Made by a program: the position numbers and the translations under genes. A stretch of 64,000 nt of DNA from NCBI GenBank assembly GCA_903926565.1, contig CAIYJU010000052.1, positions 18,581 to 82,580 on the forward strand, read 5' to 3'. The stretch comes from an uncultured Bacteroidales bacterium (GTDB lineage: Bacteria; Bacteroidota; Bacteroidia; Bacteroidales; FEN-979). Shown here piece after piece: positions 2,235-39,174 of this stretch (its first letter is position 1; each line of letters begins with the position of its first letter). Below the pieces are notes generated by a model. That model saw only the letters and a list, made by a program, of their open reading frames with translations, searched no databases and was not told the DNA's origin.

Positions 2235-4706
2235 ATGCAAATAGTAATAAAATCCATGAAGTCTGTTGCCATTATGACCTTGATTTGCACCCTGTGGTTA
2301 CATGGCATTTCATTGCTTGCTCAGAATACCGATGCTCCGCCAACCGTTCAGGATTGCCTCGGAGCCATCCCGGTATGCCAGCCAATCTATACAACCACAA
2401 CATCCTATACCGGACATGGAAATGTCTATCCTGAAATCAGGAACAACAGCGTTTGCCCGCTCTGCATGGATGGCGAAAAAAATGATGTCTTTTATGTGAT
2501 CACGGTGCAGACAAGCGGAGTCCTGCGGTTCACGCTCACACCAAACAATCCTTCGAACGACTACGATTGGTCCCTGTTTAACATGACCAATGCAGGATGC
2601 GACCAGATATACATCAATGCATCAACACTTCAGGTGAGCTGCAACTCTTATGGTATTACCGGTACAAATGGTCCGACCGGCATCAACACTTTGCTTGGGA
2701 ATAATCTGAATTGCAACGGTCCCGGTCTATCCGGAAAGAAATTCAATAAAGATCTCGCAGTACTTACAGGCCAAACCTACGTTCTCAATGTGAGCAACTG
2801 GTCACCGACAAACCAATCGGGATATACCCTTGATTTCAGCGGGTCAACCGCTTCCATCTTCGACATCACTCCGGCAACGATCGACTCCATCCAGCAAACC
2901 GTTTCGTGCGCCGGTTCCGACAGCCTTTTTGTGCAGTTCTCCGAAAACATGAAATGTGTCGACCTCTTTCACAAACCTGAAAAATTCAGCCTGACAGGTC
3001 CGGCCGGAACCTACACCATTACCGATGTTACTTCTGTGGATTGCAGGACAGGCGCCACCAACGGCAGGAGCTGTAGCCTGAAAACCAACCCGGTGCTTTC
3101 AGCAGGCAGCTATACGCTGCATATCACCGGTGATATCCGCGATCTTTGCGATAACCTTTGTGTTTACCAGGATTACCCCTTCCAGTTAACTGAAATCAAT
3201 GCGCCGGTTGTTTCTGCCGGCAACGATACCACGGTTGCCAATGGCGCAATCATCACGCTTCACGGGGCCGTTTCAGGGGGTGCAAGTCCATACACATACC
3301 ATTGGGAACCTGCAAATTTACTTACCAACCCTGCTGTTTTACAACCTGTTACCATAAACATGGGTGCCTCTGTCAATTTCATCATGAATGTGACAGACCA
3401 GGCAGGCTGCCATGGAACCTCCGACGTTTTGGTTACCGTTGTTGGCGGGCCTTTGGGTGTATTTGCAGCGGCATCCCCCGGGACTATCTGTGCAGGTTCT
3501 TCCGCGGCACTGAATGCCATGGTATCCGGCGGAAGCGGTAACTATGCTTTTTCATGGTCATCAAATCCACCGGGGTTTACTTCTGCTCTTCCTAACCCCA
3601 CTGTTTTCCCGGTATCTACCACCACATACACCGTTCAAATCAGCGATGGTTTCAGCAATGTTTCCGGAACTGCGACAGTCATTGTAAACCCAAAGCCCAT
3701 CGCCGGTGCGGGTTCAAACACCAGCATCCCTTATGGCACAAACGCCACGCTGAATGGAACAGCATCCGGCGGGTCGGGAAATTACAGCGCTTACTGGACA
3801 TCAAGTCCCCCCGGTTTTTCATCGGCAAGCCTTATCGCCCAGGTCACCAACCTGACAGTGACTTCCATCTTCACTCTAACCGTCACCGACAATATCACCG
3901 GATGCATCAGTGAAGCGGCTCAGGTGATGGTTTCTGTTACCGGGAGCCCGCTGGCATGCAATCCGGTTGCAAACCCGGCGGTCATGTGCCAGGGGGAGCG
4001 CACCACGCTGCATCCCATGGTTGGAGGAGGCTCAGGAAGTTACACCTACACCTGGACCTCAACACCTCCGGGATTTACCTCGAATGAATCCGATCCGCAG
4101 GTTGTTCCGGATGAGACCACAAACTACATGCTCACCATCTTCGATGGGTTTAACCATGCATCCGGGGTCGTGAATGTGCATGTAAAGCCACTCCCGCTGA
4201 TACTCAACTGGCCTGCCGACACCACTGCCTGCATCTACCAGAAGCTCATCCTCGACGCCGGTAATCCGGGTTCCGCCTACTACTGGTCGAATGGAGCGAC
4301 GACGCAAACGATCGAAGTTGAAACCACCGGCCTTGGTTACGATGTGCAGACTTACCGCGTTAAGGTACTTAATGAATATGGTTGTGTTGATTCGGCAGAT
4401 TCCAGGGTAAGTTTCTCCTTCTCGGCTTGCACTGCAATTGAAGAGGTGCTGCCGGAAGGGTCCCTGAGAATCTATCCCAACCCCGGCAACTCAAAACTGC
4501 ATCTCGAAATCAGGTATCCGTGTCAGCTAATGGAAGTGGTCATCTCCACCATCGTCGGTGAACCTGTGCTGACCGACCGGATTGATCTCTCCGCAGGTGT
4601 AATGGTTGACCGTGAGTATGACCTATCCCCGTTTGCAAAAGGGCTTTACCTGGTTACGCTGAAAAGCAATGTAATTTCAAGAACGCTGAAATTTATCAAT
4701 CGTTAA
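2235..4706 (+). CDS. T9SS-secreted surface protein with tandem SprB-type repeats and a C-terminal T9SS sorting domain; the likely true start is MKSVAIM at 2256
   Basis: Signal peptide; at least 4 repeats of G-G-(A/S)-(S/G)-x-Y-x-(Y/F)-x-W...PPGF (SprB-repeat-like); C-terminus ...LRIYPNPGNSKLHLEI...KGLYLVTLKSNVISRTLKFINR is typical of Por_Secre_tail. Confidence 0.8.
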   Translation: MQIVIKSMKSVAIMTLICTLWLHGISLLAQNTDAPPTVQDCLGAIPVCQPIYTTTTSYTGHGNVYPEIRNNSVCPLCMDGEKNDVFYVITVQTSGVLRFTLTPNNPSNDYDWSLFNMTNAGCDQIYINASTLQVSCNSYGITGTNGPTGINTLLGNNLNCNGPGLSGKKFNKDLAVLTGQTYVLNVSNWSPTNQSGYTLDFSGSTASIFDITPATIDSIQQTVSCAGSDSLFVQFSENMKCVDLFHKPEKFSLTGPAGTYTITDVTSVDCRTGATNGRSCSLKTNPVLSAGSYTLHITGDIRDLCDNLCVYQDYPFQLTEINAPVVSAGNDTTVANGAIITLHGAVSGGASPYTYHWEPANLLTNPAVLQPVTINMGASVNFIMNVTDQAGCHGTSDVLVTVVGGPLGVFAAASPGTICAGSSAALNAMVSGGSGNYAFSWSSNPPGFTSALPNPTVFPVSTTTYTVQISDGFSNVSGTATVIVNPKPIAGAGSNTSIPYGTNATLNGTASGGSGNYSAYWTSSPPGFSSASLIAQVTNLTVTSIFTLTVTDNITGCISEAAQVMVSVTGSPLACNPVANPAVMCQGERTTLHPMVGGGSGSYTYTWTSTPPGFTSNESDPQVVPDETTNYMLTIFDGFNHASGVVNVHVKPLPLILNWPADTTACIYQKLILDAGNPGSAYYWSNGATTQTIEVETTGLGYDVQTYRVKVLNEYGCVDSADSRVSFSFSACTAIEEVLPEGSLRIYPNPGNSKLHLEIRYPCQLMEVVISTIVGEPVLTDRIDLSAGVMVDREYDLSPFAKGLYLVTLKSNVISRTLKFINR

Positions 4707-10957: not shown

Positions 10958-11200
10958 TCAGTGAGCCGGAAACCGCAAGGTTTTCCTTTTCAATAATTTC
11001 CACGCGCCAAAGCCGGCCACCATGGCCAGTGAAACAACCAGCCCACCATCGATGGGAGCGCCGCCACCCGGGGCTTTGTTGCTATTGGTCCCTTTTTCTG
11101 CCGGAGGAGGCGGTGGTGCCTGGGTCATGCCTGTATGGGCAACCAGGATGAAACAGAGCATCAGCAGGGAAAAGATGAGGGGGTTACGTATTTTTTTCAT
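10958..11200 (-). CDS. 80-aa secreted mini-protein made up only of a signal peptide, poly-Pro linker, Gly-rich segment and a sorting-signal-like C-terminus (GGGAPIDGGL, TM helix, KRK)
   Basis: MKKIRNPLIFSLLMLCFILVAHTGMTQA | PPPPPAEKGTNSNKAPGGGAPIDGGLVVSLAMVAGFGAWKLLKRK. Lies 18 bp downstream of a T9SS cargo gene on the same strand. Confidence 0.55.
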   Translation of the reverse strand: MKKIRNPLIFSLLMLCFILVAHTGMTQAPPPPPAEKGTNSNKAPGGGAPIDGGLVVSLAMVAGFGAWKLLKRKTLRFPAH

Positions 11201-11218
11201 GATTTATCGTTTTGATAG

Positions 11219-11728
11219 TTATTTAATAAAAACTTTCCCTGAGAAAACCTGGTCGCCGGTTACCACCTTTACCAGGTAATACCCGGTGGCCCCGTTGAGG
11301 TTGATCCTTGCCAGCGAATTCTCGCTGAGTTGCTGTTGCATCACCTGCTGGCCAATCATGTTGTACACGATCACCCTGCCATTGAGCATAACGCCTGATG
11401 TACCGAAGATGTATATCGTATTACCAGAGGCATAAATTGTGACCGGTGATTCCATCTCTTTGTCATTCACGCTGAAAGTACCGCCAAAATGGAGCAGGAA
11501 ACGGGCTGCATCATCAGTTTTGGCGGAGGAAAAGGTGTAAGCCGGGTTGGTTACCCCGGGGCTGGTAAGGGTGAAGGCGCCATTATCAACCACCCAGTAA
11601 CTGCCTGTTTCTCTTATAATCCTGGCGCCGGATTCAGCTTTTATTAACCCCTGGGCGAATGAGTAAAATGGAATTAACACCGGTAATATTAATACCAGCA
11701 GTCTGATCATTCGTCTGTTCTTTTTCAT
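11219..11728 (-). CDS. small (169 aa) T9SS C-terminal-domain protein
   Basis: Signal peptide MKKNRRMIRLLVLILPVLIPFYSFAQG; C-terminus ...GYYLVKVVTGDQVFSGKVFIK. Confidence 0.65.
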   Translation of the reverse strand: MKKNRRMIRLLVLILPVLIPFYSFAQGLIKAESGARIIRETGSYWVVDNGAFTLTSPGVTNPAYTFSSAKTDDAARFLLHFGGTFSVNDKEMESPVTIYASGNTIYIFGTSGVMLNGRVIVYNMIGQQVMQQQLSENSLARINLNGATGYYLVKVVTGDQVFSGKVFIK

Positions 11729-11875: not shown

Positions 11876-11965
11876 TTACCCCCTGATGATACGAATCGGA
11901 ACATGATTGGCGCCAGATTCAGCTTTTATCACCCCTTGAGGGAAAGCAGAAAATTGACAATTTAC
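11876..11965 (-). pseudogene. truncated paralogous copy of the 5-prime end of the 11219..11728 gene
   Basis: About 40 nt of DNA identity (ggcgccRgattcagcttttat...cccct) encoding AFPQGVIKAESGA..RIIRG* against FAQGLIKAESGARIIRETG... in the intact gene. The reading frame stops immediately afterwards. Confidence 0.4.
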
Positions 11966-12517
11966 TCTTGTACCAATAAAAAAATCAATGGCAAAGATTA
12001 CCCTGTCGAATAAACCCGCCGCCGTAAATAAAATGAAATTTAAAAGCAAATTCGCTGGAATAGTTGTAACAGAATTTTTAGTTCCTTTAGAAAACACCAA
12101 GGAAAGTCCTTCAGGCGTCTCTGCTTCCAATATATGTGCCAATAAATAAGAAAACTGCGGGATCACAGTGGATGATACAGTTAATTATTTGAAAATGAAA
12201 GCGAAAAAAATCAGTTAGTTTTCAGGTGGAAAGTATTCAGGCTGCAGCCTTCTCATCACAACAACATGTTTATTGAAATTTTCGCGTTAATGTGCGAAAA
12301 GGCGTGGGCTGTAAATATTGATGCCAGTCATTGACATGTTTCTGCAGAAGTTCTTTATTTTGGTCTTCAGAGGGTTCTTCTTGTTACCCCCATTAGGTGA
12401 GCGGGGGTGGTCAACTGAATCGGTTTGTCGCTTTGGCAGCCTGACTTTATTTCAGGTGAGTTTCAATCATTAAAATTGGTGGATTTTTCCTCAAACCCTG
12501 GCCAAAACCTGGCGGAA

Positions 12518-12605
12518 AACAAAAAACCACCTGCAGTTTAACGTGTAAGTGGTTGATTTTGAATTGGGGCCATCAGAACTTGAACTTGGGACCAATTGAC
12601 AATGA
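12518..12605 (-). repeat. degenerate duplicate of the tRNA-Met 3-prime half (T-arm and acceptor) plus its terminator hairpin; direct repeat of 20069..20156
   Basis: About 80-85 % identity over ~88 nt to the 3-prime half and terminator of the tRNA at 20116..20189. D-arm and anticodon arm are absent, so it is not a functional tRNA. Confidence 0.55.
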
Positions 12606-12676
12606 ACTTATTTATATGATTTTCAGCTCATTATAAAATTTCGTCATCTGATTGTTTTTCTTATCATTGATAATAA

Positions 12677-12919
12677 TTAAGGGTGTGTTGTAATGGCAGC
12701 AACGTTGGAATACTTCGCCTTATAAAGCATCCTTCCGCCATACGCTGCAACTATGGCCAGGAAGAGGGTCAAACTCCCATCGATGGGAGCGCCACCTCCG
12801 CCAACGGGGCCGAGGGTACCGCCATTTGAAGGATCAACAGGTGGAGCTGGCGGTGCCTGGGCTAAAAGTGAAATTCCGCTGATCATCAAAATTGCTGTAA
12901 TTGCTAAAATCTTTTTCAT
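12677..12919 (-). CDS. 80-aa secreted mini-protein, paralogue of 10958..11200 (signal peptide, PPAPP linker, Gly-rich, GGGAPIDGSL, TM helix, basic tail)
   Basis: MKKILAITAILMISGISLLAQA | PPAPPVDPSNGGTLGPVGGGGAPIDGSLTLFLAIVAAYGGRMLYKAKY... The start codon at 12919 was chosen because it gives a canonical signal peptide. Lies 65 bp downstream of the beta-helix T9SS gene. Confidence 0.55.
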   Translation of the reverse strand: MKKILAITAILMISGISLLAQAPPAPPVDPSNGGTLGPVGGGGAPIDGSLTLFLAIVAAYGGRMLYKAKYSNVAAITTHP

Positions 12920-13026
12920 TGTTATAGTTTTTAACTTTATATAAACACTTTTCATTACCACAGAGTAACGCAGAGATTTTCGCAGAGAACCGCAGAGATT
13001 TTTTGGTGGTTCTCTGCGGTAAACTT

Positions 13027-16000
13027 CTAATTTATTATAATTCCTTTTACCGTCATCACTTCATTTCCTGTCGTGAGTTTAGCTACAACAAAACCTTTGC
13101 AGTTAATTTGCAGTGTCGAAAGTTTGCTCAGAACGATGGTCTTGCTCAGCAGCTTTTGGCAGGAGGCGTTGTAAACTTCCAACAATCCGGTTTGTCCTGC
13201 AAGGCTGGGTGCATTGATGTAAACCGTATTTCCCGAAATCCATAAATTTCCCGAAAAGCTTGCCGGTTCTTCAATTCCGATTGTCCCACCAAAAACCAGT
13301 TTAAAACGGCTGGCATCATTTCCAGGATTGTGAATGAAGGTATAAACCGGCTGGTTGCGCAGGTTGATGGTTTGGTTGGTGAGTTCGTCTTTGAGGCAGA
13401 TGTTCAATGTCGGGTCGAAGCTTTCCATATTTGCGAAAGATAGATTCACCACACCTGCAAACTGGGTTTCAAAATTCATTGGAACCATTGTGTCATCCGA
13501 CAAATTGCCCAGGGCGTTAATGGTAACTTTGTTTTCGCCGGCCATCGTGTAAATTTGAGGAGCATCGTCAGCGCCATAAAACTTTACAGCGTCTTCGTAA
13601 GGACTGTAATCGTTCGTGTTGGTTTCGCCAAATCCCACAAGCAGTTCATCGGCCATGCCATTGGCGACAGCGTTTACGCGTAACTGCTGAGCTACCAATT
13701 CAGTATTTTTAAGGAACGTGGCACCCGAATGTGTACGTACACCGTTATCCATTATCAAGCTTGGGCTGGTGTTGGTGGTTTGAACAAAAAATGCCTGCCC
13801 AACTGCAATATACCGCGATGCATTAAAAGTTCCACCACTTCCATTCCAAACCCCATAATTACCGTTGTTATAAATCCAAATGGAAGTTCCGATATTGGTT
13901 TTTGTCCAGCCCGATGCAGCGTTCCAGTCAATGTTGGAAGGATAAGGGTTTGGGACGAGGGCAAAGTTGAGGCCATCGGCATGTCCGTGGTAAGTAACCG
14001 AAGGGGTAAACGTGCCGGTATTCGGAGCTCCTGTAAAACTGTAAGTTGTGCTGATGCCTGGGTAGTAAATCATATAACCTACCGTTTCATCGAGTTCAGT
14101 GGCAGAGCTGTTCCCCATGCCCGACCAGATGTTGGAGGTTGGCAAATACTCGTAAAGGTACGAACCCGAAAATAAGCCGGATAACGAATTGTTGCTTGTT
14201 GCCAACGGCACCGAAGCCAGGTGGTATTTGTATGCGTCCAGGTTGCTGCTTCCTTCAACCGTGCGTTGTATGCTTATATTTCCGCTAACACTGCCGTTTG
14301 TCATAAGCGAGCCACCGGATTGTACGGTAAGGCTGGCATCAGCGTTAACGGTAAGGTCAAAGCAATCGGCCGAACCGCCACTCAACACAACAGGCTGGTT
14401 GGCAGCAGTTCCGGGGATGGTTACATTTGCCGATGCATCGGGCACAGTGTTGCTGCTCCAGTTGGTTACCGTATTCCAGTCGTTGCCTGATGTACCTGTC
14501 CAGGTAAAGGTAACAGATGGAATGTATTCAAAAGAGCCAATATCTTTTACTCCGGAGTTGGAATAACCTCTTTGGTCGGTTGCCGGTATTTCAGTACCCG
14601 ACATACCGGCATTGATTGCCGGGCTGCCTGGCAGCAATGCAAAAGTTTTAGTATAACCACCATTATCGGCAAGTGAACCAAGTAAAGGGTCGGTTGCAAT
14701 CTGGCAATTAGTATAACTCCCTATTGCTGCACCTATATCATTGGTATTTTCAAGATTACAATTAGTAAAGTTATAACTGGTAGTGTTATTTGCAAAAAAC
14801 TGCGGTCCACCATCTGTTGCAGTATTTCCATACATTATATCGTTTTTAAAATTAACAGGGTTTGTTGTAGGCTGTCCATTGGTTGAATATGCACCGCCCC
14901 TTCCGGCTGCATTTCCCAAAAAAGTAGAGTTGATAATACCATAATTATTATTAGTTGTAGAAGGAAATACAAGAATAGCACCACCACAATTTCCTGCACT
15001 ATTGTTGCTGAAGGTTGTGTTTGTAATCAACAAATTTTTATCTCCATTAGAATTAACAAAAATGATCGCACCTCCACCCGACTTGTTAGCAATTTGCATT
15101 AAACTTGAAACATGATGATTATCAGAAAAGGTGGAATTCTCAACATCAAGATTACTATGTTGGGTATATAATCCTCCCCCACCTGTATAATCATAATCTC
15201 CAGCAGGAGTTGTTGCATAATTTGATTCAATAGCACAATTTTTGATATGAAGTGTGGTGTTTGCTACAAAAATACCACCTCCGTAATATGTAGATTTCCC
15301 ATTCCGGATAGTTACTTTTTCAAAACTATAAAAGGTATCATCCAAATAGCTCGAATTGCTAAAATTAAATACCCTGCCGGAAGCAGTATTAGGGATAGCA
15401 GCTGCCTGTATGATTGTCAGAGCCGGTCCTTGACCAATTATTGTTAATGATTTGTCTGACACATAAATTTCCGATTCAGTAAAAGTTCCTGCCGATAATA
15501 ACAGAATATCTCTTGATCCGGCAGCACTTGCGGCACTCGTAATAGTAGTGTACATTTGTCCTGCACCAACAGTCAGCACACCAATGAAATCAACTGAAAA
15601 GCTGCTGCTTGAGTTAGCCGTTCCGGCTGCATCTCCATTTGAGAAAGCACTATTATTGAACTGCAAATTAATATTATCGATTTCATCTGTAGTGGAATGC
15701 GATGCGGCATTACCTATCAAAGTGAGGGTTAAGGCAAGACTGTTATTCCTGATCAATGAAGCAGTAAGCCCGGTTGGAACATTGCTTATACTTACTTTCC
15801 CGGTATTTACAAAATTCTCACCATCTGTTCCGCTAAAACTGGTTCCATCAAAATTGTTGTGAACTATAGCGACTGAAGTGCCAATTGAACCATCATTTGA
15901 TAAATTTTCAAGAAATTTGAAGGAACTATAGGCCACTTCAGGCTGTGGCAGATAAACACTTAATGTTAATCCATTCCAGCCAGTTAATGGTGGGCTTCCG

Positions 16001-16257
16001 GCATCCATGCTCATATAATAATCCATAATATTACCCCCAAAATAATCTCCTATCACCCAAAAACTAGAGTTGTAACCAATTGCCCATTGTGTACTCCCAT
16101 CATTATACAAAAACAGGGGTTGCCCATTCATAGTGCCGGTTTCTATGTAAAGACCGTTAAGTGGAGTAAACCATGACCCACTCACCACATAATCTGTAGC
16201 CGAAACTGAAAAGGCCAAGGAAATAACCAGGCAAAAAGTGACGAAAATCTTTTTCAT
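13027..16257 (-). CDS. large secreted right-handed parallel beta-helix (pectin-lyase-fold) adhesin-like protein with a T9SS-type C-terminal domain
   Basis: Signal peptide MKKIFVTFCLVISLAFSVSA. Many N/G/T-rich beta-helix rungs (NSxFxxN, GGGI, AIIFVNSNG...). C-terminal beta-sandwich tail ...LLEVYNASCQKLLSKTIVLS...VKGIIIN. Confidence 0.7.
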   Translation of the reverse strand: MKKIFVTFCLVISLAFSVSATDYVVSGSWFTPLNGLYIETGTMNGQPLFLYNDGSTQWAIGYNSSFWVIGDYFGGNIMDYYMSMDAGSPPLTGWNGLTLSVYLPQPEVAYSSFKFLENLSNDGSIGTSVAIVHNNFDGTSFSGTDGENFVNTGKVSISNVPTGLTASLIRNNSLALTLTLIGNAASHSTTDEIDNINLQFNNSAFSNGDAAGTANSSSSFSVDFIGVLTVGAGQMYTTITSAASAAGSRDILLLSAGTFTESEIYVSDKSLTIIGQGPALTIIQAAAIPNTASGRVFNFSNSSYLDDTFYSFEKVTIRNGKSTYYGGGIFVANTTLHIKNCAIESNYATTPAGDYDYTGGGGLYTQHSNLDVENSTFSDNHHVSSLMQIANKSGGGAIIFVNSNGDKNLLITNTTFSNNSAGNCGGAILVFPSTTNNNYGIINSTFLGNAAGRGGAYSTNGQPTTNPVNFKNDIMYGNTATDGGPQFFANNTTSYNFTNCNLENTNDIGAAIGSYTNCQIATDPLLGSLADNGGYTKTFALLPGSPAINAGMSGTEIPATDQRGYSNSGVKDIGSFEYIPSVTFTWTGTSGNDWNTVTNWSSNTVPDASANVTIPGTAANQPVVLSGGSADCFDLTVNADASLTVQSGGSLMTNGSVSGNISIQRTVEGSSNLDAYKYHLASVPLATSNNSLSGLFSGSYLYEYLPTSNIWSGMGNSSATELDETVGYMIYYPGISTTYSFTGAPNTGTFTPSVTYHGHADGLNFALVPNPYPSNIDWNAASGWTKTNIGTSIWIYNNGNYGVWNGSGGTFNASRYIAVGQAFFVQTTNTSPSLIMDNGVRTHSGATFLKNTELVAQQLRVNAVANGMADELLVGFGETNTNDYSPYEDAVKFYGADDAPQIYTMAGENKVTINALGNLSDDTMVPMNFETQFAGVVNLSFANMESFDPTLNICLKDELTNQTINLRNQPVYTFIHNPGNDASRFKLVFGGTIGIEEPASFSGNLWISGNTVYINAPSLAGQTGLLEVYNASCQKLLSKTIVLSKLSTLQINCKGFVVAKLTTGNEVMTVKGIIIN

Positions 16258-16799
16258 ACCATATTTTTTATAAATTGTTTGTTTGCAAATCATGAGCAGA
16301 AACTATTTTATTCTGACAGTGGCCATTGACTTTTTTGGCGGGATCATTTACGGCCCCGGTTTTTACTGCCATAAAATGATAGTGGAAATGCCATCCGTTA
16401 ATTAACATCAGGCTGTATTTCGCTCCAGGTCTGGCTCAAAGCTGCAGTACCGAAACGGAGCATGGCCAACACTAAAAGCAGGGCCGGCAGAATATTTTTA
16501 AAGTTGAATTTGTTCATGGTTTATTTTTTGATGATACCCGGCAAAGTAAAAGCCAATTAAGCCTTCACGCAAATACTTGTTGTTCCAAAAGTGGCAAAAC
16601 GGCTTGCCGTTTTTGAGAGTTTGCACTATTGGCGGGGGATACAGAGGGTGCTGCGTTTTTGGATTCCCCCAAATAGGGAATAAGCAGAAGTGTGCCAAAG
16701 ATTAAAACCCGAAGAAAGCTGAATAAGAAATGGACCATTCAGGGTATGAATGAAGCAGGGAGAAATCGGATAAATAATGTTTTGGGTGGCCAAGGATCG

Positions 16800-18695
16800 T
16801 CAGGCAGCGTGCCCGGCAGGCGGTTTTGTGATGTTCTTCCTGTAATAATTAGGCAGCACCCCGGTAACTTGCTGAAAGGCCCTGTAAAAGCTTTGTGCAC
16901 TGCCAAAGCCTGCATCGGCAGCAATGGCCGTTATTTTATAATTACGGCCTTCGGCACTCTCGGCCAGCGTAATGGCATGCTCCACCCGGTACATATTGGT
17001 AAAAGAAACAAAGTTCGAATCGCTGTACTGACTCAATGAGGAAGCGATTGCCTTGCGGGTGGTGTTAAGGGTTTCGGCAATATCCTCTACCCGAAGCCGG
17101 GGATTCAGGTAAGGCTTTTCAGTTTCGTAATAATGATGCAATTGTTTCAGTAGCACCTGGCTTTCCACGGTTAGTGTGTTTGCATCGAACGGTGCATTAC
17201 CGGCACTCAGAATGGCTTCAGCCTGTTTATCGCGCTGGGCACGCTCCTCCCGGTAAAGTTTTATAAGTTTGTCGAAGGCTTCGCCCCGCTCCTTTGATAG
17301 ACGCGTATTCCTTTTTAGAAGCAGGCCCAGCAGCACTATTGCCAATACGATAACAGCAATGATGATTTCGCTTAACAGCAGTTTGTTTTCTTTGTTCTTC
17401 AGAAGAGAGCTCAGGTTAACATTTTCAAGTTCTTTTTTCTCAGCCTTCTGGTATTTGGCTATATAAGCGATGGTGGCTTGTTTATCCTTGTGCGTAACCG
17501 AATCCCTCTGAGCCATCACCTTATTCGACAGACGGGTGTATTCCGTCATTTTCCCCTGCACTTTGTACGACCGAAGCAATGTTTCGCTGAAATCCGGTAC
17601 CAGCGACAGTAGCCCGAGGGAATCAGCCATCCTTATCGACTGCTTAAGGTAAAAGTCAGCCCTGGGGAAATCCTGTGTAAGAATATATATTTCGCCGAAA
17701 GCATGGTAAACCCTGGCCATTCCTCCAAGCAACCGGTTTTGCCTGCAAAGCGATAATACAGTGTCGAATTCATGCAAGGCCATCGAATAGTCCTTCTTAT
17801 CAAAGTACAGATTGGCAATATTAAACCGGGTTATAATACTATTCATCGTCGAAGACTCCCTATTCAAAGCTAATGATTTCCTGTAAAAAAACATGGAACT
17901 GTCGGGCCTGACTGTACGCAGCGCAATGCCCAGGTTATTATAAGCAACAATCAGGCTGGCAGTATCCTGGACCTGTGCTATTTTTTCACATCCTATTCTG
18001 CTGTAACGGATGGCTTCCTCCATATTGCCCATCAGTCTGTAGTTGAATCCAATATTTATGCTTTCGTCACCCAGGGTTTTTATATCTCCAAGTTGCTCGG
18101 AAATTTCATACGCCTTCATCAGGTATTCGTGCGCTTTGATGTAATTGCCCATGTCGCTCAACAGGTTGCCATAAAGGTCGCAGGCATTCCCGAAACTGCG
18201 TTTATCCGCCAGCAGTTCAAAAAGGTGCAATGCCTCGAGAGTATATTTTTCGGCAAGCGTTGATTGTTCCTGGTTACGCAGAAAACGACCCATCCTCAGG
18301 CTCGACTTTGCGATATAAGCGTTATCCGATGCCTTAACGGAAATATAATGAGCTCTCAGCAATACGCTCATAGCCGAATCACTGAGCCCAAGGCTGACAA
18401 ATGCATCTGATTTAAGGAACAGCACCGGTATCAGTGATGTGTCATTCAACTTTGTGATGTGCGCATATACTAAAGCTGAATCAGCGAAAAGAATGGTGCT
18501 GTCGGGATTCCTGTTAACATAAAAGCCGGCTTTGGTAAATGCCTGATAAAAAGCTTTCTGTTCCTTGTTTTTTGTTTGATGAGATTGGTCTAACCTTTCG
18601 CAGGAATGCATGAGAACAGCAAAAATAATCAAACAACAACCCACAAAAATCAAAGCAGCGTTTTTCTGGTATTCCATCACATCAAAAGTTTTCAT
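16800..18695 (-). CDS. membrane-anchored TPR-repeat sensor fused to an AraC-type HTH transcriptional regulator
   Basis: N-terminal TM segment, multiple TPR-like repeats, an internal TM segment (LLLSEIIIAVIVLAIVLLGLLL), and a C-terminal AraC HTH (...KITAIAADAGFGSAQSFYRAFQQVTGVLPNYYRK). Confidence 0.75.
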   Translation of the reverse strand: MKTFDVMEYQKNAALIFVGCCLIIFAVLMHSCERLDQSHQTKNKEQKAFYQAFTKAGFYVNRNPDSTILFADSALVYAHITKLNDTSLIPVLFLKSDAFVSLGLSDSAMSVLLRAHYISVKASDNAYIAKSSLRMGRFLRNQEQSTLAEKYTLEALHLFELLADKRSFGNACDLYGNLLSDMGNYIKAHEYLMKAYEISEQLGDIKTLGDESINIGFNYRLMGNMEEAIRYSRIGCEKIAQVQDTASLIVAYNNLGIALRTVRPDSSMFFYRKSLALNRESSTMNSIITRFNIANLYFDKKDYSMALHEFDTVLSLCRQNRLLGGMARVYHAFGEIYILTQDFPRADFYLKQSIRMADSLGLLSLVPDFSETLLRSYKVQGKMTEYTRLSNKVMAQRDSVTHKDKQATIAYIAKYQKAEKKELENVNLSSLLKNKENKLLLSEIIIAVIVLAIVLLGLLLKRNTRLSKERGEAFDKLIKLYREERAQRDKQAEAILSAGNAPFDANTLTVESQVLLKQLHHYYETEKPYLNPRLRVEDIAETLNTTRKAIASSLSQYSDSNFVSFTNMYRVEHAITLAESAEGRNYKITAIAADAGFGSAQSFYRAFQQVTGVLPNYYRKNITKPPAGHAA

Positions 18696-18849
18696 AGCAA
18701 GCAAAGTTAGACTAAAGCTGATACCATCAATAAAATTGATTTAGATTGTTGATCATTTGGCGTGCAATCGAGATTTACACAACGAACTTGTTTGTAGTGG
18801 TCAGAGAAAAAGATAAAGCCCGCCTGTTTAAGGCGTTCGTTGGTAATGC

Positions 18850-20068
18850 TCCTTACTTAGGATTGGGCTATCGGCAACCCTCCAGTAGCCTTTTCTGGTA
18901 TTCGCAGATTCCCAGGCTTTAGGCCGTGGGATACCGAGTTTAATCAGGTTGTGGCGTTTGGATCTGATGCGTTTCCATTGTTTCCAAATCAATGATCTCA
19001 ACCGCCGTCTGAACCATTCGTCAGTTCACTCAAGCAGGATTTTCATGTCGGCAAGCCGGAAGTAATTCAGCCATCCTGTGATGAATTGGCGCAATGCTTC
19101 CTTTCTGCGTTCATTTCCCCAACCGTTGCTGCGACAGGTCAGCTCCCTGATTTTCGCATTCATCTTTTCTACGCTCTTCCGGTGAATGCGGATTTTGCAC
19201 CCATCCTTTGTAAAGTAAAATCCATACCCCAAAAACTTTACGTCTTTGATGTGGGCCACTACCGTCTTGTTTTGATTTACTTTCAGGCACAATGTACCTT
19301 CGATGTATTTCGTGATGCTTGCAAGCACCCTTGCGGCTGCCCATTCGCTTCGGCAAAATATCATACAATCGTCGGCGTACCTCACGAACCGGTGGGTTTG
19401 CAAATACAAACGCAGTGCTTCCGTATCCATCCCGTCTATCCCTCCACTCCCATTATTCCGCTTCACTTGTTTGTAAGCTGAATTTAGATTGGCAGGTGAC
19501 AGAATGTACTCAAATAGCTCTGCTCCTCCTGTCGTTATGTTGGTGTCTCCTTTTTCGGTCATCCATAGGAATGTCTGCCCTTCTGCGTAGCTTTCGAGTG
19601 CCGCTCTATCATTCTGCAAACAGGTGTCTTTATCCGTTTTCTGCTCTCTGCCATTCATACGGTAACGATCATTTGATGCTCACCTCTTAAGATTTGACCC
19701 TTCCAATATCAACCCATGGTATCGTACTATGGTCGCTGCTGACTCCTGTTGGCAATTGTTAGCCGTGTTTCTTACTCCGTTTCCACACGTCCAACAGGTC
19801 TCCCGTGGTAAACTTATTCCCTTTCATCCCAGGTAACCGCTGCATTTACACCCCAACATCCGGGTAGTTTTTGGACTTCGATTTGTCTTGCAATCTCATC
19901 CTGCCGGGTATGCCTGATGCAATTCGTGTTCCTCGGTACGGGACTTTGCCTCCTGCTTCCTTCAGATTCCGCTTCACAACGGACACCCTTGCTCCTGGCT
20001 AATGGTTGGTAACTACCGACCTCCATAAAGGACTTGCACCTTCAAGGTTATAAGTGTGCACGGCACAC
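18850..20068 (-). mobile_element. decayed group II intron (class C-like placement) inserted immediately downstream of the tRNA-Met terminator; the 3-prime boundary is approximate
   Basis: On the minus strand the terminator hairpin and U-run are followed directly by GTGTGCCGTGCAC (a GUGYG 5-prime intron consensus). An intron-encoded RT/maturase ORF lies within the element. Confidence 0.55.
19026..19658 (-). CDS. group II intron reverse transcriptase/maturase, internally deleted (RT domains 2-4 missing), probably non-functional
   Basis: ELFEYILSPANLNSAYKQVKRNNGSGGIDGMD (RT0/1) is joined directly to RFVRYADDCMIFCRS (the RT5 YADD box). The maturase X-domain motif QFITGWLNYFR is present. Total length is 210 aa against roughly 400+ aa for an intact protein. 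Confidence 0.65.
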   Translation of the reverse strand: MNGREQKTDKDTCLQNDRAALESYAEGQTFLWMTEKGDTNITTGGAELFEYILSPANLNSAYKQVKRNNGSGGIDGMDTEALRLYLQTHRFVRYADDCMIFCRSEWAAARVLASITKYIEGTLCLKVNQNKTVVAHIKDVKFLGYGFYFTKDGCKIRIHRKSVEKMNAKIRELTCRSNGWGNERRKEALRQFITGWLNYFRLADMKILLE

Positions 20069-20069
20069 A

Positions 20070-20110
20070 ACAAAAAACCACCTACAGTTTGACGTGTAAG
20101 TGGTTGATTT
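20070..20110 (-). terminator. rho-independent terminator of tRNA-Met (AACCAC...GUGGUU stem followed by U6)
   Basis: Hairpin plus T-run on the minus strand immediately 3-prime of the tRNA. Confidence 0.6.
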
Positions 20111-20115
20111 TGAAG

Positions 20116-20189
20116 TGGGCCCACTAGGACTTGAACCTAGGACCAATAGATTATGAGTCTACTGCTCTAACCATCTGAGCTATGGGCCC
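20116..20189 (-). tRNA. tRNA-Met (anticodon CAT; could alternatively be tRNA-Ile2 if lysidine-modified)
   Basis: GGGCCCATAGCTCAGATGGTTAGAGCAGTAGACTCATAATCTATTGGTCCTAGGTTCAAGTCCTAGTGGGCCCA folds as a cloverleaf: 7-bp acceptor stem, GTTCAAGTC T-loop, CTCATAA anticodon loop. Confidence 0.85.
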
Positions 20190-20194
20190 GAAAC

Positions 20195-20229
20195 GAATAT
20201 CGAATTTCGAATATTGAATATTGAATTTC
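20195..20229. repeat. heptanucleotide SSR (GAATWTY)x5 overlapping the annotated start of the HAD gene
   Basis: gaatatc gaatttc gaatatt gaatatt gaatttc read directly from the sequence. The same heptamer family recurs inside recO. Confidence 0.6.
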
Positions 20230-20993
20230 GAACTCGTTTGAGGGGCGCAAAGATAGAAATTTATTACGATTTTTGCAACCGGATATTTAATACTATTCCT
20301 TTGAAACTCAAACCGGCAAAGATTGAACAAGGTGACGCGTCACGAGTCACGAGTCACGAGTCACCTATCACGAGTCACGAAATCAAAAACATCATCTTCG
20401 ACTTTGGCGGTGTCATCTGCAACATCGATGTAACACTTACCGAAAAAGCGTTCATGGATCTCGGGTTGACAAATTATGACACCGGCCGGTCCATCGCCGA
20501 TTCCGCCGGCCTCTTCGAGGGTATCGAAACGGGGACCATCAGTTCCCGGCAATTCCGGGACGGGCTTAAACCACTGTTCAGCAACCCCGTTACGGATGAA
20601 CAGATCGATACCGCCTGGAATGCATTGCTCCTCGACATCCCCGGACCTCATATCAGAATGCTCGAAGCATTGCGGAAAAATTACCGCATTTTTCTGCTGA
20701 GTAATACCACCGAAATCCATTACCTGAAATATCTTGACGATTTCAGAAACAAATTCGGTTACGCAGGCTTTGATGCACTTTTTGAAAAAGCATATTTTTC
20801 ATTTCAGCTTGGATTGAAGAAACCTTCTCAGGAAATATTCAGGCATGTTCTACAGCAAAGCAGGCTGAACCCCGCAGAAACACTCTTTATCGACGATACC
20901 CTGAGACACGTGGAAGGCGCCAGAAAAGCGGGAATAAATGGGTATCACCTCGCGATCGGCAAGGGGGAACATATCCTTGATCTCTTTGATTAA
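20214..20993 (+). CDS. HAD-superfamily hydrolase; the real start is uncertain (TTG candidates at 20214 and 20301)
   Basis: HAD motif I IIFDFGGVI, a motif II Ser/Thr in LLSNTTE, and C-terminal motifs K...FIDDT. The N-terminal extension is encoded partly by SSRs. Confidence 0.65.
   Translation: MNIEFRTRLRGAKIEIYYDFCNRIFNTIPLKLKPAKIEQGDASRVTSHESPITSHEIKNIIFDFGGVICNIDVTLTEKAFMDLGLTNYDTGRSIADSAGLFEGIETGTISSRQFRDGLKPLFSNPVTDEQIDTAWNALLLDIPGPHIRMLEALRKNYRIFLLSNTTEIHYLKYLDDFRNKFGYAGFDALFEKAYFSFQLGLKKPSQEIFRHVLQQSRLNPAETLFIDDTLRHVEGARKAGINGYHLAIGKGEHILDLFD
20340..20381. repeat. heptanucleotide SSR (TCACGAG)x6 (4 perfect and 2 variant units) in the 5-prime region of the HAD gene
   Basis: tcacgag tcacgag tcacgag tcaccta tcacgag tcacgaa, encoding ...SRVTSHESPITSHE... 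Confidence 0.7.
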
Positions 20994-38458: not shown

Positions 38459-39174
38459 TGCTTCATTCAACAAAAGGCATTGTTTTTCATTCCCTTAAAT
38501 ACTCAGAAACCAGTATCATCGTTAAAATTTACACCGATCTTTTCGGGATTCAATCTTACCTGATCAAAGGAATCCGGAATGCAAAGTCAAAAGTAAAACC
38601 CGGACTCTTCCAATCGATGACGCTGCTCGATCTCGTCGTTTACCACAAAGAAAAACAGTCGCTGCAATCAATAAAAGAGGTCCAGCTCTCCTGCCCTTTT
38701 AAAACTATTCCATTCGATATCCGTAAAAGTTCAGTGGTTATGTTTATCAACGAACTGGTTTATAAATCGATTCGTGAAGAGGAGGCAAATCCTGAACTTT
38801 TCGGTTTTCTCTGGCAATCCTGCCGTGATCTTGATGAAACTGAAGAGAGCGTATCCGGCTTTCATCTCCGTTTTTCCCTTCAGCTGATGCAATACCTTGG
38901 GATCTTTCCTCAGAACAACAGGGCTGACAGTTTTCCAATATTTAACCTGCGTGAAGGATGTTTTCAGGCGAGGGTTCCAAATCATCCCCATTACCTTGAC
39001 CCGGAGCAGAGCAGGGTGTTTTCTGAGATACTGGATATGAATATCGAATATCGAATATTGAATATCGAATATCGAAGGAAGATTCTTGAAACCATCCTTC
39101 TTTATTACCAGTTGCACCTGCCCGGGTTCAAAGGAGTTCAATCGCATCACATCCTCCATGATGTGTTGGCCTAA
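38458..39174 (+). CDS. recO: DNA repair protein RecO
   Basis: An N-terminal OB-fold region ([20 protein letters not shown]...) followed by a helical C-terminal domain; 238 aa. Confidence 0.78.
39039..39073. repeat. heptanucleotide SSR (GAATATC)x5 inside the recO coding sequence
   Basis: gaatatc gaatatc gaatatt gaatatc gaatatc, encoding [13 protein letters not shown]. Confidence 0.65.

Follow-up and report, generated by a model that had tools for sequence, protein, structure and literature searches.

In a 64,000-nt window from an uncultured Bacteroidales bacterium (contig CAIYJU010000052.1, positions 18,581 to 82,580; "the window" is this whole stretch), we found that an intact tRNA-Met gene and a displaced second copy of its 3′ part and terminator bracket a segment that carries a surface-protein cassette. 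Read in the orientation of the tRNA, the locus consists of the tRNA with its terminator (copy B of the repeat), a group II intron remnant, a TPR-AraC regulator gene, the gene for a 1088-aa surface protein of the type IX secretion system (T9SS) kind, the gene for an 80-aa mini-protein, 71 nt of unique DNA and the second tRNA fragment with its terminator (copy A; Table 1). A sequence-only reading of this DNA had proposed an old, decayed island that an integrase had inserted into the tRNA gene's 3′ end, and its list of contents (mini-protein, 1088-aa T9SS adhesin, TPR-AraC regulator and group II intron remnant) is borne out by Pfam, Rfam, NCBIfam and translation. The tRNA-Met(CAT) is the only tRNA that ARAGORN calls in the whole window. 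It is not of the initiator type, because G1 and C72 are paired; the ARAGORN label comes from the CAT anticodon alone (elongator Met or lysidine-modified Ile2).

Table 1. Features of the tRNA-Met locus, with positions in the window.
Feature	Position	Strand	Evidence
Native flank, directly 3′ of the tRNA-Met terminator in relatives; the TTCCGCCAGG flank	12481-12517	minus	1/30 mismatch to relatives' consensus
Repeat copy A: displaced native tRNA 3′ part (about 12565-12605), spacer, native terminator (12518-12554)	12518-12605	minus	Alignment; fold
Insert-side junction DNA, from mini-protein gene to copy A	12606-12676		No similarity found anywhere else
80-aa mini-protein with signal peptide, Pro-rich stretch, GGGAPIDG, transmembrane helix and basic tail; its gene closes the cassette	12677-12919	minus	Translation
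1088-aa secreted surface protein with T9SS-type C-terminal tail	13027-16293	minus	NCBIfam choice_anch_Q (choice-of-anchor Q), 71.7 bits
TPR + AraC-type HTH regulator, 631 aa, first gene of the adhesin cassette	16800-18695	minus	Pfam TPR_12, HTH_18, HTH_AraC
Group II intron remnant, right after the T-run of terminator B	18768-20068	minus	RF02001, 133.9 bits at 19812-19983; RVT_1/GIIM fragments at 19026-19658
Repeat copy B: tRNA from U33 to 3′ end, short spacer, terminator hairpin + T-run (20069-20105)	20069-20156	minus	Alignment; fold
tRNA-Met(CAT), intact	20115-20189	minus	ARAGORN; Rfam RF00005, 73.9 bits at 20116-20189; T-arm hairpin folds
HAD-family hydrolase gene, conserved neighbour 5′ of the tRNA and anchor for relatives	20238-20993	plus	Pfam Hydrolase/HAD_2

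The two copies form a direct repeat of 95 nt (12511-12605 against 20062-20156, 84% identical), and an ungapped comparison of 12518-12605 with 20069-20156 on the same strand matches at 76/88 positions (86%), as compared to 40-43/88 for the best other 88-mer of the window. Read along the minus strand, the two copies become similar at U33, within the anticodon loop; in the 34 columns that precede U33 on its 5′ side there are 22 mismatches, and the sequences are unrelated. From U33 on, the repeat spans the variable loop, the T-arm, the 3′ strand of the acceptor stem, a short spacer and the hairpin, and it stops at the last T of the T-run, beyond which the two part: copy B passes into the group II intron (GTGTGCC...), and the DNA after copy A is unrelated. 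A terminator pattern allowing up to 3 mismatches occurs at only two sites in the window, which are copies A and B, and shuffled sequences are expected to give 0. The hairpin can be folded in both copies (copy B, –32.7 kcal/mol, z = –5.0); a simple terminator scanner did not call it because its 10-nt loop is above the scanner limit, and folding recovers it at both copies. The string CCTAGTGGGCCCACTTCAAAATCAACCACTTACACGTCAAAC is specific to copy B. The sequence-only reading had described the intact tRNA-Met with its terminator (20116..20189, minus strand), a second copy of the tRNA 3′ part and terminator in the same orientation (12518..12605) and unrelated flanks, and all of this holds. It had put the repeat at about 80-85% identity; the similarity stands, but it is not uniform, since the tRNA part is identical at 32/42 positions and the spacer and terminator at 44/47 (Fisher p = 0.03).

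To find the same locus in relatives, we used the HAD protein as an anchor, taking homologs from a protein database (69-95% identical) and then looking up their contigs; a HAD scan of species-representative genomes and Joint Genome Institute metagenome contigs returned nothing above 63% identity and no close relative. The linkage of tRNA-Met, HAD and QueA genes is conserved. In three lineages, L071 (HAD 74% identical), L072 (74%) and L074/L075 (69%), we found an empty site, in which an intact tRNA-Met leads into the same spacer and terminator and, contiguously, into the DNA that flanks copy A in the window. In these contigs tRNA-Met, on the far side from HAD-QueA, has its terminator followed by TTCCGCCAGGTT..GCCAGGTTTTGAGG, which is window 12517->12481; the sequence just below 12518 that stands directly 3′ of the terminator in the relatives is TTCCGCCAGGTTTTGGCCAGG.TTTGAGG. 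By blastn, L071 4397-4521 aligns with window 12481-12605 at 86.4% over 125 nt. Approximately 37 nt past the terminator, the DNA differs in every lineage. When we looked for a second tRNA fragment in the relatives, including more distant ones, we found only background-level matches. The sequence-only reading had staked its case on a repeat above chance level and on relatives in which tRNA-Met and its terminator are joined directly to the DNA below 12518; the repeat is far above chance, and L071, L072 and L074/L075 have that configuration. Of its claim of an integrase-mediated insertion into the tRNA's 3′ end, the insertion therefore stands, the 3′ end does not, as the break lies in the anticodon loop, and the integrase is read from the anatomy of the site.

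The relatives also tell the native copy from the incoming one. Each of the four empty sites has the T-stem CCAGG/CCTGG and the terminator loop ACGTTAAAC. Copy A has the T-stem CCAAG/TCTGA and a T in the terminator loop, so that the C..G and T states are kept, and copy B has the T-stem CTAGG/CCTAG and a C in the loop. Because copy A keeps the T-stem and terminator-loop states of the relatives, copy A is the displaced native 3′ part and copy B came with the insert. The intact tRNA gene has a native 5′ part up to C32, and everything from U33 on was supplied by the insert.

Copy A has decayed unevenly. Measured against the relatives' consensus, it carries 8/42 changes in its tRNA part, 3/47 in the spacer and terminator and 1/30 in the flank, and the excess in the tRNA part over terminator plus flank (8/42 against 4/77) is significant (Fisher p = 0.025). 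Its T-stem is unpaired and its acceptor strand has a mismatch. Copy B differs from the same consensus at 2/42 and 2/47 positions and is then unrelated. In its tRNA part copy A has been drifting for a long time, and its terminator and flank remain under constraint; plausibly, terminator A now ends the transcript of the adhesin and mini-protein genes, which would account for that constraint. All same-species contigs are occupied, so the insertion is fixed and old. These changes, the broken T-stem and acceptor strand, the occupied contigs, the lack of an integrase and an intron that is truncated at a joint (below) agree with the earlier description of the segment as old and decayed.

The native flank itself is conserved between the window (12481-12517), L071 (about 4397-4433), L074, L075 and L072, lineages with coding DNA that is about 75% identical. 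It holds GCCAGGTTTTG twice (once in L072). The 37 nt might belong to the terminator region or represent an old site associated with att.

The intron remnant abuts terminator B, with its 5′ junction ...GGTGGTTTTTTGTT/GTGTGCC at 20069/20068. This placement follows the rule for group IIC introns, which lie just 3′ of a terminator stem-loop and start with 5′ GUGYG (PMC1702495). We call the intron IIC-like and terminator-seeking, a class taken from its position and 5′ end, not from phylogeny. It resembles B.h.I1 of Bacillus halodurans, which also lies directly 3′ of an intrinsic terminator stem-loop and T-run and begins with 5′ GUGUGCC (PMC1702495); in contrast to B.h.I1, the intron in the window is only a remnant that lacks reverse transcriptase domains 1-4 and ribozyme domains V/VI. 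Its 210-aa reading frame covers only the C-terminal end of the RVT_1 profile (139-204/205) plus the GIIM maturase domain, with reverse transcriptase domains 1-4 deleted internally, and a search for domains V/VI gave no RF00029 match, only RF02001 (domains D1-D4), so the ribozyme is incomplete and the reverse transcriptase/maturase is not intact. When the whole segment was compared by blastn with phage and plasmid collections, only the intron portion matched, and it matched other group II introns. Similarity to the cassette relatives L076 and L078 begins at 18767, exactly where the intron remnant stops, and 18768/18767 is therefore a deletion or recombination joint that removed the intron 3′ end. 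On contig L082, another group II intron (14137-14218, minus strand; a match to domains V-VI) lies against the end of the mini-protein gene there. Introns that seek out terminators therefore seem to be common around these cassettes.

The genes beyond the joint belong to a cassette that is found elsewhere. The 1088-aa protein, whose probable start is the second Met at 16257, has no Pfam match, and over its last 111 aa it shares 32% identity with the tail of a Por_Secre_tail protein encoded at 11219-11728. The mini-protein at 12677-12919 falls below the NF046080 PID_CTERM cutoff (18.8 vs 26 bits), so that it resembles PID-CTERM sorting-domain proteins in appearance, like a sorting tag that has no cargo; its paralog at 10958-11200 (38% aa, 54% nt identical) gave no match. 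We found the three-gene cassette in four genomic contexts: the window (12677-18695, minus strand), L076 (870-7821), L082 (6956-14044; L082/L083) and L085 (159-5266). In each, the regulator is followed by a large surface protein with a T9SS tail and by a mini-protein of roughly 80 aa that has the same layout, with GGGAPIDG or a similar motif. In L076-L081, the regulator is followed by a 1473-aa adhesin and a 79-aa mini-protein within an array of adhesin/mini-protein modules. The regulator gene with its 70-nt leader is 92.6-95.5% identical in nucleotides to L076-L081, and the regulator homolog P0121 is 95% identical in amino acids. From the window to L076-L081, the regulator is thus 92-95% identical at the nucleotide level, and the adhesin is strongly different (1088 vs 1473 aa).

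Just outside copy A, at 10958-11728 on the minus strand, there is a second pair of genes, which encode a 169-aa T9SS protein and an 80-aa mini-protein. A stray piece at 11908-11957 shares 78% identity with the 169-aa gene at its 5′ end, a sign that cassettes have been rearranged repeatedly.

Other relatives have different DNA at the same tRNA. L073 encodes the HAD protein of L074/L075 and is 99.8% identical to L074 over 877 nt (L073 1874-2750 vs L074 288-1164), the sole two mismatches being a T-A as compared to a C-G pair in the T-stem. From the tRNA 3′ end on, L073 is unrelated to L074 and has another terminator and an Ig_7/Lcl_C gene. The 2 kb downstream in L073 are 99% identical to L029 (L073 1-2023 vs L029 278-2296), and the HAD genes of these two contigs are only 74% identical; tRNA-adjacent DNA with a T-A-type tRNA 3′ part has therefore recently moved between species of the clade. 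L073 and L074 are two alleles at tRNA-Met within one species, and both the L073 and L029 contigs end soon after the Lcl_C gene. In a further contig, 9B0AETQm (ERZ1426830), the only near relative that clearly differs, QueA is 100% and HAD 95% identical to the window, and a 399-aa gene without a Pfam match, convergent on the tRNA, takes the place of intron and cassette, which points to recombination with a breakpoint between QueA and HAD and to one more occupant of the site. When we searched viral contigs for the generic tRNA-Met 3′ part, we found matches to phage tRNA clusters and one attP-like fragment, on L066, which holds only the part of tRNA-Met from the anticodon loop to CCA; neither the native flank nor the tRNA-terminator junction of this lineage turned up when the viral contigs were scanned for them. 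With at least three different occupants among the relatives, tRNA-Met is marked as an exchange hot spot for T9SS surface-protein cassettes in this clade of Bacteroidota.

Taken together, these data make it very likely that DNA was inserted into the tRNA-Met gene. The history that we favour would run as follows. About 7.55 kb (now 12606-20156) would have entered tRNA-Met at the anticodon loop, most likely by site-specific recombination of the tyrosine-integrase type. The incoming DNA would have brought its own tRNA copy from U33 to the 3′ end together with a terminator, now copy B, and so regenerated a working gene, while the original 3′ part and terminator, now copy A, would have moved to the far end, beside the DNA that used to lie downstream. 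Copy A then decayed in its tRNA part and kept its terminator, probably because the adhesin and mini-protein genes now have the end of their transcript there. At a later time, a group II intron of the IIC-like, terminator-seeking kind would have landed right after terminator B, and a deletion that reached from within the intron to a point 70 nt upstream of the AraC gene would have removed the intron 3′ end and the DNA beyond it. The integration module usually lies beside the att site, and it was probably among the DNA lost through the deletion at the joint. What survived would be the cassette of TPR-AraC regulator, T9SS adhesin and mini-protein, fixed in the species. We therefore interpret the segment as a fixed, old and decayed tRNA-integrated island, in which the insertion is well supported and integrase mediation is a reading of the anatomy; the complete chain, from integrase-mediated insertion to decay, we hold to be probable, with distinctly less confidence than the insertion alone.

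Several observations weigh against this history. As the sequence-only reading had noted for integrases, we found no integrase, excisionase or recognisable remnant of either in 12606-20069 or in the tested open reading frames of 1-22108, which include all large ones of 12606-20069. GC content is only mildly deviant (0.439 in the segment vs 0.463 in the window), and the peak of tetranucleotide distance (0.237 over 12001-17000; mean 0.162, sd 0.024) is centred on the compositionally odd adhesin gene. The cargo is of a chromosomal type that is also present in a near relative away from any tRNA: we found no tRNA or tRNA fragment near the cassette array of L076-L081, and the array could not be linked to the tRNA-Met locus there. 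As it stands, the segment is thus a remnant or a composite, not an intact element. Among same-species contigs there is no empty allele (4HnkeMCK, TAJxhOsx, L061, L084 and L030 are all occupied), and the direction, insertion or loss, is not rooted by an outgroup. Finally, the terminator of copy B differs from the native consensus at only 2/47 positions, which indicates that the donor DNA came from the same lineage and is explained equally well by duplication or by Campbell-type recombination.

That last point bears on the strongest alternative, which is integrase-independent: circular or linear DNA of a closely related strain would have recombined over about 90 nt of homology, made up of tRNA 3′ part and terminator, in a single Campbell-type crossover that duplicated the homologous stretch. 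The closeness of the copy B spacer and terminator to the native consensus and the lack of an integrase speak for it, contig 9B0AETQm with its fully identical QueA, 95% identical HAD and other tRNA neighbour suggests flank-mediated recombination at this locus, and the tRNA-adjacent DNA shared at 99% identity by L073 and L029 crosses species. However, the homology starts exactly in the anticodon loop, a typical att sublocation that would be arbitrary for a random fragment unless the fragment was itself an excised island, and some 90 nt of homology is little for integration that depends on RecA. This alternative, which departs from our favoured history only in the enzyme of the final crossover, is the main rival and we consider it unlikely, though by no means negligible.

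A single tandem duplication of a segment made up of the tRNA 3′ part, terminator, T9SS protein and mini-protein is a good deal less probable. Its appeal lies in the parallel order, in which copy B is followed by adhesin and mini-protein (16293-12677) and copy A by the 169-aa T9SS protein and mini-protein (11728-10958). The modules are, however, far more diverged than the repeat: the mini-proteins are 54% (nt) and 38% (aa) identical and the T9SS tails 32% (aa), as compared to 76% in the unconstrained tRNA part, and outside the 88-nt repeat only one block of 64 nt aligns, at 70%. A duplication would also need a compensatory double change in the working T-stem that happened to land on the exact state of the L073/L029 insert. 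The three-gene cassette occurs in unrelated contexts, and the parallel order therefore reflects a repeated cassette family and not one duplication. The pair of T9SS protein and mini-protein genes after each copy was considered as the unit of such a duplication and was rejected on divergence.

We give slightly less credence again to two further accounts. In the first, the two-copy state would be ancestral, and the single-copy sites of L071, L072 and L074/L075 would have arisen by deletion between the repeats (excision) in their ancestor. Gain and loss are unrooted among the relatives at hand, and recombination between direct repeats yields exactly the single-copy product. But the single copies are fully functional and carry the copy-A states of T-stem and loop, so that the crossover would have to have fallen 5′ of the T-stem while copy A was intact, soon after insertion; more distant relatives are without the second fragment, and the account is still a history of insertion and excision and not a different phenomenon. 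In the second, of comparably low probability, insertion would have been free of any integrase, and the tRNA 3′ part and terminator would act as a portable unit of homology and termination that lets strains and loci exchange T9SS adhesin cassettes. This could happen either by Campbell-type recombination of excised cassette circles or by way of the reverse transcriptase of the terminator-seeking group II intron, which would copy its 5′ exon (tRNA 3′ part and terminator) and the intron into a complementary DNA that recombines into the tRNA gene. If true, this would be an integrase-independent way to build tRNA-linked islands. Chance resemblance or an assembly artefact is practically excluded, as 76/88 stands against at most 43/88 and both junctions are reproduced in independent assemblies from other samples (L061 and L084, with 99.5-99.7% identity; L030, with 100%; 4HnkeMCK and TAJxhOsx, by their gene order).

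The stretch from the tRNA to the HAD gene holds short tandem repeats with a 7-nt period (GAATATT-type and GTCACGA-type) at 20195-20232 and 20332-20380, and a similar repeat lies at 39034-39076. The copy number of the heptanucleotides differs among relatives; there are many more in L029, where they are PSPVTRH heptads of an extended reading frame.

The class of island to which our favoured history assigns this locus is well known, and nothing here is new in kind. NBU1 and NBU2, mobilizable elements of Bacteroides, go into tRNA-Leu and tRNA-Ser genes at the 3′ end and, like the insert in the window, are small tRNA-targeting elements of Bacteroidota that restore the gene; their common cores are short and lie at the 3′ end, and they carry int and mob genes, none of which this locus has. 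The feature is an ordinary one that leaves current understanding unchanged, and it is of use for annotation and for dating when genes were gained at the locus. The scar shows what selection keeps (the terminator and the 37-nt flank) and what drifts (the tRNA fragment).

A close counterpart among Bacteroidota is the 10K genomic island at tRNA-Arg of Riemerella anatipestifer, whose 53-bp att runs through hairpin and T-run and whose integrase has been experimentally verified (PMC6764341). That island is about 10 kb long, its repeats consist of the tRNA 3′ end, hairpin and T-run, as in the window, and strains are either occupied or empty. The locus in the window has tRNA-Met, diverged repeats and no integrase, whereas the 53-bp repeats of the Riemerella island are perfect and the tyrosine integrase beside it was shown to integrate and excise the island. 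In the Islander database, 2083/3919 tDNA islands have an anticodon-centred att and 3760/3919 leave a 3′ fragment (Hudson, Lau and Williams 2015, PMC4383910, which cites Williams 2002). The window shares with these islands a regenerated, intact tRNA at one end, a displaced direct 3′ fragment at the other, a canonical boundary in the anticodon loop (U33), cargo in between and an unoccupied attB in relatives. This match, together with the Riemerella precedent, is why we favour insertion by an integrase and later decay. It differs in that the tyrosine integrase gene that Islander requires inside the island is absent from the tested open reading frames across 1-22108, so that it would fail the integrase filter and we call it a remnant rather than an active island; its repeat, at 86%, is not perfect and runs on through the terminator to 47 nt beyond the tRNA, and the island is small, fixed and decayed, with adhesin cargo of a chromosomal type. 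Set beside these systems, the locus offers a clean, comparatively verified case of an old tRNA-integrated island that has become fixed after its integrase was probably lost, a state that integrase-dependent island finders miss by design.

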